Below are positions 487 to 20,000 of a DNA stretch of 20,000 nt, piece after piece. Position numbers and translations under genes: made by a program. The stretch is from Chiloscyllium plagiosum. Its lineage: Eukaryota. The notes under the pieces are model-generated. The model was not told the DNA's origin. It was given only the letters and a program-made list of their open reading frames with translations, and did not search any database. The stretch is from positions 19,193,465-19,213,464 of the forward strand of contig NC_057719.1 in NCBI RefSeq assembly GCF_004010195.1, written 5' to 3'. Numbering within the stretch: the stretch's first letter is position 1; each line of letters starts with the position of its first letter.

Positions 487-546
487 ATTCTGGATCAGTG
501 GTGCTGGAACAGCACAGCAATTCAGGCAGCATCCGAGGACAGGCAA

Positions 547-582
547 AATCGACGTTTCGGGCAAAAGCCCTTCATTAGGAAT
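547..582 (-). ncRNA. Minimal hammerhead ribozyme motif with mutated core (CUAAUGA)
   Basis: Minus strand AUUC-CUAAUGA-A-GGGC-UUUU-GCCC-GAAAC-GUC-GAUU. The conserved G of CUGANGA is A here, so it is likely inactive. Confidence 0.7.
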
Positions 583-3127: not shown

Positions 3128-4168
3128 GATGGCCTCCTTCTTTAAAGACCATAATTTCCGTTGCCACGTGTTTGAAGATGCCCTCCAATGCATCTCATCC
3201 ACATCCCTGCACCTCCGCCCCACCCCAATAACCACAACAAGGACAGAGCCCCCCTGGTACTCACCCTCCACCCCACCAACCTCGGCATAAACCGCATCAT
3301 GTGCCGACATTTCCGCCACCTACAACTGGACTCCACCACCAGGGATATATTTCCCTCCCCACCCTTATCCACTTTCCGCAAAGACCATTCCCTCCGTAAC
3401 TACCTGGTTAGGTCAACGCCCACAACAACCCACCCTCCCCTCTTGGCACTTTCCCTGCCACCGCAGGGATTGCAAAACCTGTGCCCACACCTCCAGCCAA
3501 GGCCCCAAAGGAGCTTTCCACATCCAAAGTTTCACCTGCACATCCACCAATGTCACTTATTGTAACCGATGCTTCCTGTGCGGTCTCCTTCACATTGGGC
3601 AGACTGGACACCTTCTCGCAGAGTGCTTTAGGGAACATCCTGGGACACCCGCACCAATCAACCCCACCACCCCGGGCCCAAACATTTCAACTCCCCTCCC
3701 CCCACTCTGCTGAGGACATGCAGGTTCTGGGCCTCCTCCATCACCGCCTGATGCCTGGAGGAAGAACACCTCATCTTCCACTTCAGAACACTTCAACCCC
3801 AGGGCATCAATGTAGACTTCACCAGTTTCATTTCCCCTCCCCCCACCTTACCCCAGATCCAACCTGCCAGCTCAGCACCATCCTCATGACCTATCCTGCC
3901 AATCTTCCTTCCCACCTATCCACTCCATCCTCCTCTCCGACCTATCACCTTCATCCCCACCTCCAACCATCTTAGCTACCTTCTCCCCAGCCCCACCCCC
4001 TCCCATTTATCTCTCTATGCCAGAGGCTCCCTGCCTCATTCCTGATGAAGGGCTTTTGCCCGAAACATCGATTTTCCTGCTCCTCGGATGCTGCCTGAGC
4101 TGCTGTGTTTTTCCAGCACCACTTTAATCTGGACTCCGATCTCCAGCATCTGCAGTCCTCACTTTCGC
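3128..4168 (+). mobile_element. Younger 5'-truncated Penelope-like (Neptune-type) element: linker, Cys-rich segment, GIY-YIG endonuclease remnant and 3' tail
   Basis: NKDRAPLVLTLHP matches the copy at 1197-1370. 3453-3638 translates PCHRRDCKTCAHTS..FTCTSTNVTYCNRCFLCGLLHIGQTGHLLAECFREH (CxxxxCxxC plus a decayed GIY-YIG). Several frameshifts. C-rich 3' UTR ending ccagcatctgcagtcctcactttc. Confidence 0.9.
4038..4073 (+). ncRNA. Minimal hammerhead ribozyme motif in Penelope 3' end (stem III palindrome mutated)
   Basis: AUUC-CUGAUGA(4042-4048)-A-GGGC/GCCC stem II-GAAAC-AUC-GAUU. Other copies have GAAACGUC. Confidence 0.75.
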
Positions 4169-5350
4169 ATACACTTCCTCACACCCTACTTCTTGTAAGG
4201 AAACCATTCCAATTTCCCAATTTTTTGGTTTCCAACACAGCTTTTCTAATGGTGCCACTTTCCACAGGAGTGATTTTCATGCGCGTTCCTTTATGCTCAA
4301 AAGGACAAATTCCCACCAGTGCTCAGTAAATCTGACCCATTTCCCGCACTTCAATCTTCACCCCTTCCCCATCCCATGTGGAACAATGATAACAATAAGG
4401 TCCTCCTTGTCCTCATTTGCAAGTGTATCCTGCCTCCTCAAGAGGTCACCCACTTTCATTTCAATCACCTTCAGCAAGATGTCATCAACACATCATCCAA
4501 TCTCATCAGCATTCAGCAAGGACCATCCCCTGCATGACATTGTGGTTCTTTAGATCATTTCCATAACCTCAACAACCTCCCACACTCCCGAACCAGCACC
4601 TTCCTTTCTAGGCACAGATGTAATACTAGTCCCTTTACCACCTCATTCCTCAGTTTAAAACCAAAACTTGTATACTTTTCAATCCAGTCTAATGCATCTG
4701 CTGGTCACATTGTGATCTTGTGTACTTTGAGACCAAATGCTGACTAGGTGATTGCTTTGTTGAACATCTTTGCTCTGTCTGCAAAAAACAATCCTGACTT
4801 TGCTGTCTTTTACCATTTCAATGCATCAGTATGTGCTTAGGCCAACATCTGCAATGGCCAGCTGCAATGTTCCAGCAAAGTTCAATGCCTGCTGGATGAA
4901 CAGCAACTAATTTTCTCCTTGATTCTCTTTCCTTCTTGATTCCTGAAGGCATTTTATAGCCTTCAGGAATCAAGCGTTCAACAACTTCAGCCTACAAACA
5001 TCCTCTACTTTGATTACAACTCTCCTCCTCTGTTCTTACTGAAATGTTTGCTGTTAGTAGAGCAGACTTATTTTCTGCTATTGACACCCACCAGCAACAC
5101 TAACTCATCACTAATAGTCATTCTCTACTACCATTAGCACTCCCTTTGACTTTCATTGAGGCACCCATACCATCTGTTCTACATCCTTTGCCATCCCCTT
5201 TTTCTGCAGCATTAAAGAAATCCCATTTTTTAAAACCCCTTTAAAGGGAGGAGTCACATTGGTCTTGGAATGATAAATATTTATCTCTCCAAACAGACCT
5301 GTTGAGTTGCTCTAACAATTTTTCACATCTCCAGCCCTCTCAGTAGTTCA
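4169..5350 (+). mobile_element. Old degenerate Penelope-like element, 3' part (continuation of 2600-3127)
   Basis: Resumes at YTSSHPTSCKETIPISQF. A decayed GIY-YIG at about 4665-4780 (ETKC*LGDCFVEHLCSV) and an eroded terminal tail at about 5245-5345. Confidence 0.75.
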
Positions 5351-7440: not shown

Positions 7441-7559
7441 TTAACATTTACTTAGGTGTTTTCTTTTCCCATGGCCTGTCAAAACTGAGGGAGAAGTTTG
7501 AGTGCCCATTTCAACCATCTCTACTTTCTTCAAATTCCTTCTTGCTTCCGACTTCTTGG
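7441..7559 (-). CDS. Probable terminal coding exon of a host gene (basic C-terminal tail; possibly VRK1-like kinase)
   Basis: Acceptor ctttctatttaaag, phase 1, reads (A)KKSEARRNLKKVEMVEMGTQTSPSVLTGHGKRKHLSKC*. In frame with the exon at 10422-10512. An alternative donor gtaaat at 7451 is possible. Confidence 0.65.
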
Positions 7560-9302: not shown

Positions 9303-9960
9303 CATCAGATGCAGAGCAGAAGTAGCCATTCAACCTGAGTCCCCTCCACTTTCCTATCAACTCTCAATTCCATTATGAATTAGAAATCTGTCAATCTTAG
9401 CCTTGAATATACTTAATAGCCCAGCCTTGACAGACCTTTACGGTCAAGAATTCCATGTATTTATCAAGTAAAAATCTACTTCTTATCTGACTTAAATAGT
9501 AGACTCTTCACTTTGATACTCTGGTTCTAAATACACCTACAAGGAGAAACAACCCCTCCTGCATCTATCCTATTGATTCCCCCAAGAACCTCGTTTCAGT
9601 AAGGTCACCTCTCATTCTCCTGAAATCCAATGCATACAGGCTATTCAACTCATAAGTAAATCCCTCTGTAGCCAAACTCCATTCCATGTGAAAGTATTCA
9701 TGGTTTCCAATTCCAACAGTTTCCTAGGTCGCAAGATCATTACCAATCCCTATGCAAATAAAGTTTTTTCCTATACACCCCTGTATCTCTTGCCAAAAAT
9801 CTTTAATGTGTGTTCTTTAACGTTGACTCAGCTTTTTGTCTACTTCTTACCCATCTAAAGCCAACAATCTTGTACAGCTCTATCAGATCAGTCCGCAATG
9901 TGTTGGGCTCCAGGGACAACGATCACAGTTTCCCCAAACTAACCTTGCAGTTTAAACTGG
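9303..9960 (-). mobile_element. Old CR1-type LINE 3' fragments (probably two adjacent pieces)
   Basis: agcagaagtagccattc, agccttgaatatacttaat, gaattccat and gtaaggtcacctctcattctcctgaaatcca resemble the reverse complement of the CR1 ORF2 end and UTR (compare 12620-12900). Confidence 0.6.
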
Positions 9961-10110
9961 GGACAAAAAGTTTCCTCTTCAACTGTGTTTTATTTTTTGT
10001 TGCATTAAAAGCATCGTTAACAAAAACTACGGGAAAAAGACAGAACATTATGCTGGATTTGTAGGGGCTATTTTTTACCAAATGTCATAAGGGACCAAGA
10101 TTTAGACGTT

Positions 10111-10332
10111 TAGATCAGAGTGGTGCTGGAAAAGCACAGCAGGTCAGGCAGCATCTGAGGAGCAGGAAAATCGACTTTTCGGACAAAGGCCCTTCATCAG
10201 GAATGATGAAGGGCTTTTACCCGAAATGTCGATTTCCCTGCTCCTCGGATGCTGCATGACCTGCTGTGCTTTTCCAGCACCACTCTGATCTAAAAACTGT
10301 GGTTTCCAGCATCTGCAGTCCTAACTTTTGCT
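10111..10332. mobile_element. Palindromic non-autonomous Penelope-derived insertion with 17-bp TSD
   Basis: Inverted arms 10109-10199 and 10204-10294 around a GGAA loop, followed by a single-copy PLE tail. Flanked by accaagatttagacgtt (10094-10110) and accaagatttagatgtt (10333-10349). Confidence 0.9.
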
Positions 10333-10421
10333 ACCAAGATTTAGATGTTAACTGACATGTCCAGCTGACAATTCAAAAGGGTCTTGACTGCCTCAACACC
10401 CCAGTTTTATTGTGTTCTTAC

Positions 10422-10512
10422 CTCTTGGAGATTTTCGCATTCTTTTTCCACCCTTTAACTCAGAATCAGAGGCATTGCCTTCATGATCAACAGTCTTTGA
10501 AGCACATCGTTT
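10422..10512 (-). CDS. Internal (penultimate) coding exon of the host gene, 91 nt, phase 0 to 1 (possibly VRK1-like)
   Basis: Acceptor ctttc(t)n-aaag and strong donor GAG|gtaaga. Open frame KRCASKTVDHEGNASDSELKGGKRMRKSPR, which retains CpGs and splices in frame to 7559. Confidence 0.7.
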
Positions 10513-10884
10513 CTTTAAAAAAAAAGAAAGATATTGCTGGAGATCAATCATTGTCAGCAAAATTTTAGTCACTGTCTTTATGACATTAAATTAATTAGAC
10601 AACGCTCAGACAAACCGAGTGATCTGTGGATGAGCTAGTTTCTAGAAAATTAGTACAGGGGCTCAAAAGTTTGAAAGCAGTAACACAAGATGGAATCTTG
10701 GGTAGTGTTGTGACATCAAAAGAGCTGGAGCTTACGCCAAACTGAAGTCTTAATAAGAAAGCTCTTACACTTACTCCTAACAAAAGCAGCTACAGTACTC
10801 AAAGTTTAATTCGAACATACATTAATAAAACTTCCAAAGCATATCACATTGATTTTCAAATTCAACTCAATAGATCAAAGCTCT

Positions 10885-11126: not shown

Positions 11127-11599
11127 AGTAGTCCATTACGTTAAATAATTAGATTGTTAAGAAAACGAGTCACACAGTTTTGTAGCAGGATTTTAATTCC
11201 AAACAAAAGCTTTAAATGATCTGGTTAGATTGAGAAAGGTTACAGTAGATCGCTAAACCATGTTTTCATTCTCTCAAACCTATTGGCTTTGACATTAAGA
11301 GCTTGGTTTTAGTCCCAGAGTGGGAACACAATGAGAAAATCATGTATTTGAGTAGCACCAAGCAGACCTGACCAATTTTAATTGCTGGGCCACATTACCA
11401 GCTTCCTGAGCAAAATGGCTGGAAATCTGGCAAGAAGAGCAGCTGACCCACGTTCAGATGTGGGCAAACACAAACTTAACGAGACCGCAGCAGTATAGTT
11501 TGGCAAGACCATGGTGACTTTACCTTTTGAAAATAATTTTTTTTTTACTGAGCCACCAATGGAGATTTTAGTGCAGAAAACAAATGCTTGATCACAGAG

Positions 11600-11708
11600 G
11601 GAAGTTGAGGAGAGAACACAGCAGAATTGGAGATGTTTATGATTGGAATTCAAGAAGACAATTCACCAACTGTGGAGCAATTAAACTCAGGAATACACAG
11701 GCTAGAAA
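11600..11708 (-). mobile_element. L2-like LINE remnant, left piece (split by CR1)
   Basis: ccaactgtggagcaattaaactcaggaat..aggctagaa continues colinearly into 13031-13320 by the recalled L2 pattern. Confidence 0.45.
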
Positions 11709-13030
11709 TGTTGGAGGCAATGCTGAGGAACAAGATATACATTTATTTGGAAAGGCAAGGGATAGTCAACATGGCTTTGTGCATGGGAAATCATGTCTCA
11801 CAAACTTGATTGAGTTTTTTGAAGAAGTAACAAAAAGGATTGAGGAGGGCAGAGATGTCATCTATATGGACTTCAATAAGGCGTTTGACAAGGTTCCCCA
11901 TGGGAGACTGGTTAGCATGGTTAGATCTCATGGGATACAGGGAGAACTAGCCATTTGGATACAGAACTGGCTCAAAGGGAGAAGGAAAAGGGTTGTTTTT
12001 CAACTGGAGGCCTGTGACCAAAGGAGTGCCACTAGGATCAGTGCCAGGTCCAATTCTTTTCATCATTTATATAAATGATTTGGATGTGAGCATGAGGTAT
12101 AGTTAGTAAGTTTGCAAATGACACAAAATTGGAGGTGTAATGGACAGCGAATGTTACCTCAGATTACAAAGGGATCTTGATCAGATGGGTCAATGGGCTG
12201 AGAAGTGGCAGATGGAGTTTAATTCAGATAAATGTGAGATGCTGCATTTTGAGAGAGCAAATCTTAGCAGGACTTATACACTTAACAGTAAGGTCCTAGG
12301 GAGTGTCGCTGAACAAAGAGACCTTGCAGTGCAGGTTCATCGCTCTTTGAAAGTGGAGTTGCAGGTAGATAGGATAGTGAAGGTGGCATTTGGTATGCCT
12401 TCCTTTATTGGTCAGCGTATTGAGTACAGGAGTTGGGAGGTCATGTTACAGCTGTACAGGGCATTAGTTAGGCAACTGTTGGAATATTGCATGCAATTCT
12501 GGTCTCCTTCCTATCGTAAAGATGTTGTGAAACTTGAAAGGGTTCAGGAAAGATTTACAAGGATGTTGCCAAGGTTGGATGATTTGAGCTATAGGGAGAG
12601 GTTGAATAGTCTTGGGCTGTTTTCCCTGGAGCGTCAGAAGCTGAGGGGTGACCTTATAGAGGTTTACAAAATTATGAGGGGAATGGATAGGATGAATAGA
12701 CAAAGTATTTTCCCTGGGTGGGGGGAAACCTATGAACTGGAGGGCATAGGTTTAGGGTGAAAGAAAAAAGATATAAAAAGAGACCTAAGGGGCAACTTTT
12801 TCACGTAGAGGATGGTACCTGCATGAAATGAGTTGCCAGAGGAAATGGTGGAAGCTGGTACAATTGCAACATTTAAAAGGCATCTGGATGGGTATACGAA
12901 TAGGGAGGGTTTGGAGGGATATGGGCCAGGTGCTGGCAGGTGGGACTGGATTGGGTTGGGATATCTGGTCGGCATGGACGGGTTGGATTGAAGGATCCGT
13001 TTCTGTGTTGGACATCTCTATGGTTCTATA
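11709..13030 (+). mobile_element. 5'-truncated CR1-clade LINE (HER1-like), RT pseudogene plus 3' UTR
   Basis: QHGFVHGKSCLTNLIEFFEEV..YMDFNKAFDKVPHGRL, then LQRDLDQMGQWAEKWQMEFNSDKC..LEYCMQFWSP..LRGDLIEVYKIMRG. Frameshifted, with catalytic FADD reading FAND. Ends in a ctatg-type tail. Confidence 0.95.
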
Positions 13031-14214: not shown

Positions 14215-14730
14215 TATTTGAAATGTGGCGCAGTCTGCCATCTCGCGTGGCTATAAACAATCTTGTGGCACAATTTTTAAGAGCAAGATGATTCTTCGCT
14301 CATGCCCTGGCTAATACTTCGACCCCAACTTACACTATTAACAGATTAAAAACCAAAAGAACTGCAGATACTGTCAATCTGAAACAAAAACATAAGTTGC
14401 TGGAAAAGCTCAGCAGGTCGGGCAGCAACTGTGAACAGAAATCAAGGTTAACATTTCAGGTCTGGTGACCAGTTCTGAGCAAGATTCACCAGACCAGAAA
14501 CGTTAAACTTGATTTCTCTTCACAGATGCTGCTAGACCTGCTGAGCTTTTCCAGCAACTACTATTAACAGATTACTTGGTTATCTCAATTCTTTGTGGAG
14601 CATTGATGTGTGCAAACTGGCTGCAGCAATTCCAACTTCAGAATTTGGCTGCACTTCAATAATGTACTTCAGTGGTTGTAAAGCACTTTGGGATCTTAAA
14701 AGCCCTTTATAAATGCAAGTTTCTTTTCAG
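14215..14730 (+). mobile_element. DeuSINE-like (SacSINE1/AmnSINE-related) element, interrupted
   Basis: gtctgccatctc..gtgg..cctggctaata..aacagatta..tttgtgg..gtgcaaactggctgc..gtaaagcactttggga..tataaatgcaagt matches the recalled Deu domain plus an L2-type 3' tail. Confidence 0.65.
14349..14559. mobile_element. Second palindromic Penelope-derived insertion (different subfamily) with 15-bp TSD
   Basis: Inverted arms 14395-14468 and 14486-14559, with a single-copy tail at 14349-14394. Perfect flanking repeat actattaacagatta at 14334-14348 and 14560-14574. Confidence 0.88.
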
Positions 14731-19763: not shown

Positions 19764-20000
19764 GGAGAAAGTGAGGACAGCAGATGCTGGAGATAAGAGC
19801 TGAAAAATGTGTTGCTGGAAAAGCACAGTAGGTCAGGCAGCATCCAAGGAGCAGGAGAATCGACGTTTCGGGCATAAGCCCTTCTTCAGGAATGAGGAAG
19901 GTGTGCCAAGCAGGCTAAGATAAAAGGTAGGGAGGAGGGACATGGGGGAGGGGTGTTGGCAATGCGATAGGTGGAAGGAGGTTAAGGTGAGGGTGATAGG
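19764..20000 (-). mobile_element. Penelope-like element 3' end (continues beyond the window)
   Basis: Reverse complement of the tail at 3950-4168 (gaaagtgaggacagcagatgctggag..gctggaaaagcacag..gcagcatcc). Confidence 0.9.
19858..19893 (-). ncRNA. Minimal type I hammerhead ribozyme motif with intact core
   Basis: AUUC-CUGAAGA(19889-19883)-A-GGGC-UUAU-GCCC-GAAAC-GUC/GAUU. All core nucleotides are present and ACGU is the palindromic stem III typical of PLE dimer-type hammerheads. Confidence 0.8.

Follow-up and report, generated by a model that had tools for sequence, protein, structure and literature searches.

The 222-nt insert at 10111-10332 of the window (the whole 20,000-nt stretch of Chiloscyllium plagiosum DNA that was analysed) is very probably a one-off, dead-on-arrival insertion of a Penelope-like element (PLE), in which an inverted copy of the PLE end is joined to a direct copy and a tail. 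What is observed is its anatomy, its homology to longer PLE ends, a 3-nt overlap between its arms, the ownership of its loop letters, the independent decay of the two arms, and the presence of its outer junctions in two organisms. As to the manner of insertion, the particular route in which two cDNAs were joined is slightly favoured. The hairpin would be a by-product that has since decayed in an intron, and its hammerhead motifs would have no present role.

Anatomy of the insert and its kinship to a Penelope-like element

According to a repeat search, the element has two inverted arms of 91 nt each (10109-10199 and 10204-10294), which are 92% complementary, with 7 mismatched pairs among the 91, and which leave 4 nt between them; the 91-bp arms described in the earlier note are therefore as claimed. 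The plus strand of the element is predicted to fold at -173.2 kcal/mol (z = -20.06), a stability reached by 0 of 200 shuffles. The same search finds a 17-bp direct repeat on the plus strand, with the left copy at 10094-10110 and the right copy at 10333-10349, which is taken as a TSD. Its copies are identical at 16 of 17 positions, the sole difference being CG in the left copy versus TG in the right, which is the single CpG-type mismatch that had been pointed out before. Among 3000 random pairs of 37-nt windows placed 200-280 bp apart, the best match was 14/17, and the analytic chance of a 16/17 match within 10 nt of both boundaries is ~3e-6. The left arm opens with 2 bp (10109-10110) that are part of the TSD, and the 222 nt of the insert are what lies between the two copies. 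The TSD contains TTTAGA and the left arm opens with TTTAGA, two letters being common to both (10101-10114); the insertion target may thus resemble the element's own tail boundary, a likeness that chance could also produce.

In terms of the family, the order of parts is TSD, tail-less inverted copy, direct copy, tail and TSD. The tail-less inverted copy of the PLE 3' end occupies 10111-10206, with its sense strand on the minus strand, and the direct (sense) copy occupies 10204-10292 on the plus strand. The tail (10293-10332, plus strand) is 40 nt long, or 38 nt if the arm is taken to end at 10294; it is present at the right end only, in agreement with the unpaired PLE tail noticed earlier, and aligns with the tails of 4029-4168 and 19767-19901. 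A stop occurs within 60 codons in every frame of both strands, and the element has no coding capacity, as had been stated.

Three further stretches of the window (497-582, 4029-4168, and 19768-19901) are similar to the element at 78-89%, for instance at 85% over 128 nt in the case of 4043-4168, and each of these three copies extends into longer sequence. Two of them have the tail, while the 497 copy is without it and begins at about the boundary of the left arm. The end at 4029-4168 lies on the same strand as, and ~330 bp downstream of, a GIY-YIG-like frame (3411-3710). In a language-model feature search this frame has a GIY-YIG set score of 0.95 (14 of 30 hits), a label of lead grade, as the family is named on 16% of the cluster members and the top two clusters are unnamed. 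Beyond the N gap by the 497 copy, a minus-strand frame (1233-1577) falls among HTH_animal-like clusters (27 of 30 hits, score 0.98), a recognition that lies below the reliable level; the HTH_animal domain is presumably the part of the PLE protein between the reverse transcriptase and the endonuclease. Pfam assigns a relevant family to 0 of the 4 PLE frames, with one chance hit (E 0.077), and matches RVT_1 in both of two LINE frames, one of them above the cut-off. A sequence search of the PDB returns one chance hit only (E 0.22), and an RT core of the family was not recovered from the window. The PLE identity of the coding part is accordingly drawn from the feature search together with general knowledge of PLE proteins. 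Because of the homology to the long ends, the GIY-YIG-like and HTH_animal-like frames, and the hammerhead core found in those same ends, the arms are read, on sequence grounds, as the 3' end (part of the pLTR) of an endonuclease-bearing (GIY-YIG) PLE. The insert thus unites kinship to a PLE 3' end, an adjacent inverted 5'-truncated copy, a one-sided tail, a TSD, and a hammerhead motif, which are the features of inverted-plus-tail insertions of EN+ PLEs. One of the two readings in the earlier note, an extreme inverted truncation product of a PLE, is upheld by the match of the ends to three long copies, the GIY-YIG-like frame and a layout that is already published.

A MITE is a derivative of a DNA transposon, to which it is akin in sequence, and has a terminal inverted repeat at each end. 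This class was considered for the element and rejected, as the right arm stops 38-40 nt before the TSD and the whole sequence is that of a PLE 3' end.

Several other stretches of the window are related to PLEs. At 490-1592, a tail-less PLE end at ~490 faces the N gap (625-1196) in inverted orientation, and a clean PLE-like frame lies beyond the gap on the minus strand; this stretch could belong to some larger insertion, as its inverted 5' part. A 5'-truncated PLE copy with a frameshifted GIY-YIG-like region, a hammerhead, and a tail lies at 3128-4168, and the sequence directly after it (4169-4900) resembles, by eye, an older and more decayed PLE coding stretch. Near the latter, an imperfect 40-bp palindrome (4935-4974, 85%, arm CTTCAGGAATCAAG) is perhaps the remnant of a similar fold-back. 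On the minus strand, a tail-bearing PLE 3' end with an intact GAAACGUC core (19767-20000) runs off the window. Apart from PLEs, the window holds a decayed LINE reverse-transcriptase fragment (11570-13020, RVT_1 E 1e-7), the 3' end of which looks CR1-like to us.

Relative to the long copies (497, 4029, and 19767), each arm has 4 private substitutions, at 10156, 10176, 10183, and 10188 in the tail-less arm and at 10219, 10227, 10236, and 10256 in the direct arm. None of them is compensated, and no derived change is common to both arms in the comparison with the 4029 and 19767 copies. The 4 + 4 private changes have the appearance of neutral decay in two once-identical arms and not that of a fold-back chimera. 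A gene on the minus strand holds the element in one of its introns, and 72 nt separate it from the donor site. A candidate coding exon at 10422-10512 (minus strand) has AG/GT ends and an open frame, and RNA reads (run X21), whose first mates are all on the plus strand, cover it to a depth of up to 8. Another candidate exon with AG/GT ends (7452-7559, minus strand) would, by eye, join it in phase, and the intron with the hairpin is the one between these two.

The fold-back junction and the route of insertion

At the start of the hammerhead, the native sense letters of the 4029 and 19767 copies are TCA-TTCC-TGA-(T/A)GA; the 497 copy differs. The tail-less arm reaches TCA and so starts 6 nt upstream of the hammerhead core, and the direct arm, which is 5'-truncated one base into the core, begins at TGA. 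The two arms overlap by these letters (TGA/TCA) at the inversion junction (10204-10206), without filler bases. An overlap of at least 3 nt is expected by chance in ~1.8% of random truncation-point pairs in the 4029 copy, a figure that applies to one junction only. The GGAA tetraloop of the earlier note (10200-10203, plus strand) is indeed at that place but is not a special cap, as its letters are the native ones of the family in 2 of the 3 long copies (4029 and 19767). They continue the tail-less antisense arm, whereas on the tail-bearing antisense strand TTCC stands in place of the native GGAA. Since GGAA lies on the strand of the tail-less arm, a simple snap-back of the tail-bearing first strand cannot give this junction.

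Two antisense cDNAs, one from each nick and joined by TGA/TCA, would fit the junction without extra steps. In this route, the GIY-YIG endonuclease would nick the two strands of an AT-rich target with a stagger of 17 nt, as taken from the length of the TSD, and reverse transcription would be primed at both nicks on uncleaved PLE RNA. As judged from the anatomy, an outer start site would yield the tail together with its arm and an inner start site the tail-less arm. Both cDNAs would halt close to where the hammerhead has its 5' edge, at a length of ~95-130 nt, and their 3' ends would then pair through TGA/TCA, each being filled in on the other. The carrying over of work on an anole PLE to this junction is by analogy.

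A different route to the same one-off insertion, with the same identity for the element, has a modest chance of being right. Here a single cDNA, for example a tail-less one, would snap back and prime itself on a native mini-hairpin (TCA-GGAA-TGA), and a template jump would then add the tail. The junction is exactly that native 3-bp stem with its GGAA loop, palindromic GAATTCC centres occur in paralogues, and self-priming at palindromic junctions has been proposed for PLE inverted repeats in the portion of PMC3846280 that was available. However, the GGAA of the element is carried by the strand beginning with the tail-less arm, while the simple version predicts the loop on the opposite strand, so that snap-back needs an extra jump.

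The window holds a second hairpin-plus-tail insertion (14334-14574), which belongs to a more distant PLE-end family and lies 4 kb away in the opposite orientation. It is bracketed by a perfect 15-bp TSD (14334-14348 and 14560-14574) and consists of a 211-nt insert with a 46-nt tail. By eye, its tail-less arm starts ~5 nt upstream of the CTGA box and its tail-bearing arm within helix II; the tail-less arm extends further upstream than the tail-bearing arm in both hairpins of the window. Both hairpins (2/2) also turn near the 5' edge of the hammerhead, within ~10 nt. Candidate causes for the place of the pivot are the 5' end of the RNA, a stop of the reverse transcriptase, or the self-complementary letters themselves.

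Paralogous fold-backs and the hammerhead motifs

Four of 24 runs were aligned to 9900-10560 at 80% likeness: X4 and X5 from organism A (the source organism, two studies), X13 from organism B (a relative), and X21, which consists of raw RNA reads from organism A. In X4, X5, and X13, contigs anchored in unique flank cross the left TSD copy and reach 10135-10138 within the left arm; in X4 and X13 such contigs also leave the tail through the right TSD copy (from 10302-10303). As the outer junctions are thus found in flank-anchored contigs of A and B, the insertion is present in both organisms. None of the pieces listed from the four runs spans the centre with unique flank attached. An empty site was not seen in organism A or B in these runs, and the TSD thus stands without a pre-insertion allele.

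The PLE-end family is very abundant, with 54,265-87,727 contigs aligned per run. Pattern scans for the PLE end gave 0 matches in sets of genome, viral, and metagenome contigs, but since these sets do not consist of eukaryotic genomes the result carries no weight. Of ~209,770 pieces the longest 24 were listed, and 16 of these 24 cross the fold-back centre and extend for 45 letters or more to either side of it, each with 16-29 other letters and 2-9 gap letters. Of the remaining 8, 5 are flank-anchored, 2 cover the right arm only, and 1 runs past the centre by 21 nt. By subtraction, the net length of the 16 listed pieces differs from that of the element by -7 to +4 nt and is equal to it in 0 of 16, where indels away from the centre may contribute, only centres near that of the element can align through, and some of the 16 may represent one locus in several runs. 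In the 15 joints listed, out of 454, the left arm is left at 10143, 10150-10155, 10167, 10182, 10193, and 10204-10206, and both GAATTCC and AATTCC centres occur among the fold-back paralogues. Read from these alignments, fold-backs near the element's centre are common and their junctions varied. The piling up of loose ends at 10204 was not taken as a sign of a fixed start, since any longer copy would cease to resemble the aligned stretch at that point. The RNA run has 23 A>G and 14 T>C places versus 8-9 and 6 in the contig runs; RNA editing was considered and rejected, since A>C, A>T, and T>A are also more frequent in that run and its reads stem from numerous paralogues.

The other reading in the earlier note made the element a member of a non-autonomous hairpin family mobilised by the PLE reverse transcriptase and GIY-YIG endonuclease. 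Such a family would have a fixed junction, and these enzymes would insert its transcripts again as whole units. For the element this is now given only a small chance. Fold-backs whose centre is within a few bases of that of the element are common, with 16 of the 24 longest pieces listed, and some of these fold-backs may be present in many copies. For instance, record 11 of X4 crosses the fold-back centre at a depth of 287 versus 13.6-14.5 for unique flank, or ~20x single-copy depth. Together with record 21 of X5, which has the same span and gap count, it aligns to 10120-10255 and is 5 nt shorter than the element (X5 depth follows the exon and was not used as a copy number). Three joints, among the 15 of 454 listed, have depths of 139, 204, and 711, and the first of these combines an internal deletion with a GAATTCC centre. 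However, none of the 16 listed centre-crossing pieces has the element's net length, their gap counts range from 2 to 9, and the listed joints exit the left arm at several places between 10143 and 10206, which tells against one shared junction. Moreover, no derived change is shared by the arms, the hairpin of the other family in the window is joined at a junction of its own, and a 91-bp stem at -173 kcal/mol would presumably be a poor template. The multi-copy fold-backs may be either passengers in larger repeats or hairpins copied as units.

That some of these fold-backs, as distinct from the element itself, spread as units, in the manner of MITE-like, hairpin-shaped, non-autonomous Penelope passengers, is improbable but offers a lead, because a fold-back contig in organism A has ~20x depth and the joints have ~10-50x. 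If true, the fact that junctions of two families cluster where the hammerhead has its 5' edge would point either to a short, defined template RNA or to programmed stopping, and many such stubs would be readable as snapshots of double-primed PLE integration.

A pattern scan finds a degenerate hammerhead core at 10200-10173 of the element, in addition to two long copies. This minimal hammerhead (10173-10200, minus strand) has a full CUGAUGA box, followed by GAAAAGUC, and lies on the strand of the host pre-mRNA. On the plus strand, reading of the sequence reveals a hammerhead remnant (10204-10230), UGAUGA...GAAAUGUC, which is without C3 and has a mismatch in stem II. The claim of a hammerhead-like motif on each strand, with the first C removed on the plus strand, thus stands. 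The helix-III palindrome of the minus strand is broken (GAAAAGUC versus GAAACGUC in the 19767 and 497 copies), and its CpG is lost in both arms by different changes. In a search of the whole window with Rfam up to E = 5, 7 matches were obtained, none to a hammerhead and all below the gathering score. A mir-761 match on the element (E 0.39) was rejected as a generic hairpin. The second hairpin matches a plant microRNA model (E = 3.5e-11), also below the gathering score. The computed pairing probability of stem II is 0.0 on either strand in the whole element, whereas the minus arm taken alone gives 0.64 and the 4029 copy > 0.99. In an active ribozyme the core, helix II, and helix III would all be formable in the transcript, which by computation they are not, and hammerhead activity in the element is predicted to be unlikely.

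The earlier note had the element pivoting on the hammerhead. In position this is correct, as the core has its 5' edge at the pivot; as ribozyme action it is not, with the cleavage site 26 nt off and the motifs damaged and paired. Since the GUC site (10230) lies 26 nt downstream of the junction, cleavage did not set the pivot and the template would have been uncleaved. It is very unlikely that hammerhead self-cleavage determined the pivot, or that the host intron retains the hairpin for a function as ribozyme or regulatory RNA, even though both hairpins of the window turn within ~10 nt of the 5' box and the full-core motif is on the pre-mRNA strand, 72 nt inside the intron. Besides the position of the junction and the absence of stem II pairing on both strands, the antisense arm is transcribed first in either direction, and the helix-III palindrome is changed in both arms with no compensated change. 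In addition, within the text available of each paper, single minimal hammerheads show no cleavage in vitro (PMC4209133), and hammerhead mutants leave insertion by an anole PLE unaltered (PMC11167929).

Though the assembly has gaps (572 N) and the listed pieces that span the centre are without unique flank, a fold-back artefact of assembly or library is disfavoured as most improbable of all, given that 7 of 91 arm sites differ with changes on both sides, where a chimera copies one arm, that both outer junctions occur in hairpin-consistent orientation in flank-anchored contigs of A and B, and that the TSD brackets a complete known architecture.

Comparison with known systems

By itself, a single locus of this sort is of little import, since the insertion pattern is known and the stub has decayed. 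It is nonetheless a small, clean example for the question of how PLEs make inverted copies and one-sided tails, as raised in the available parts of PMC8557442 and PMC11167929. The owner of the loop, the length of the overlap and the length of the TSD, taken over many stubs, would separate double priming from snap-back. Such stubs can also pose as microRNA precursors, MITEs, or ribozyme genes in the annotation of shark genomes, and an insertion common to organisms A and B is a possible phylogenetic marker.

In L1 twin priming, a second nick primes a second cDNA, and the result is an inversion that is joined by microhomology and flanked by a TSD. The element is similar in having an inversion with microhomology and a TSD. 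In contrast, the two parts of such an L1 insertion come from adjoining, non-overlapping stretches of the RNA, whereas the arms of the element copy the same stretch, which makes an inverted duplication.

For PLEs themselves, the text available of PMC11167929 describes a protein of the anole PLE Poseidon (Anolis carolinensis) which in vitro cuts and extends both strands, with two internal start sites that bound the tail; it favours AT-rich DNA with ATT and takes uncleaved RNA as its template, while inverted insertions are not discussed in that text. The route proposed here resembles it in the cutting and extension of both strands, the tail-bounding start sites, and the uncleaved RNA, and ATT is present in the TSD of the element.

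The hammerheads of metazoan PLEs, so far as the portion of PMC4209133 at hand describes them, have a CUGANGA box with an extra base before helix II, a GAAAC-GUC core, and a palindromic helix III, all of which are found in the intact copies of the window. In the PLEs of Schistosoma mansoni, minimal hammerheads are paired 100-700 bp apart on opposite strands (PMC4209133, same portion), and the element likewise has two motifs on opposite strands. However, the motifs of the element overlap at the junction, one of them is without C3, their palindromes are lost, and both are buried in the 91-bp stem. Non-LTR retrozymes (bioRxiv 10.64898/2026.07.22.740005, in the part available) are, like the element, non-coding, hammerhead-bearing, and derived from PLE pLTRs. 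The element is not assigned to them, since they are described there as tandem, with at least 2 consecutive units of complete motif, and the element is head-to-head, single, and damaged. A link between the Eulor/UCON hairpins and the element was not found in the part of PMC5753468 that was available. Descriptions of sub-250-bp fold-back stubs in sharks were not found among titles and the openings of abstracts, a search that stops short of subscription journals, Repbase, and Dfam.

The closest counterparts of the element are the complex insertions of EN+ PLEs. In the accessible text of PMC8557442, PLE insertions have an adjacent inverted 5'-truncated copy and a 30-40-bp tail that is often at one end only. 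That of PMC3846280 reports, for rotifer PLEs, an inverted pLTR, a 31-bp tail, 8-10-bp TSDs, and palindromes at the inverted junctions; the description of an inverted pLTR with an extension is repeated in PMC8969392, again as far as its available text goes. These complex insertions (PMC8557442; PMC3846280, with Pen2a_Av, Pen2, and Pen3a) and the element share a head-to-head inverted copy at the 5' side, a tail at one end, a TSD round the unit, and a short complementary overlap at the junction. On the other hand, the element has no coding body and is only 222 nt in total, its TSD measures 17 bp as against the 8-10 bp of the rotifer cases, and its junction overlap is 3 nt as against a palindrome of 15-38 bp. 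An inverted copy with a one-sided tail and a TSD is nevertheless the published pattern of PLE insertion, of which the element is a very short case.
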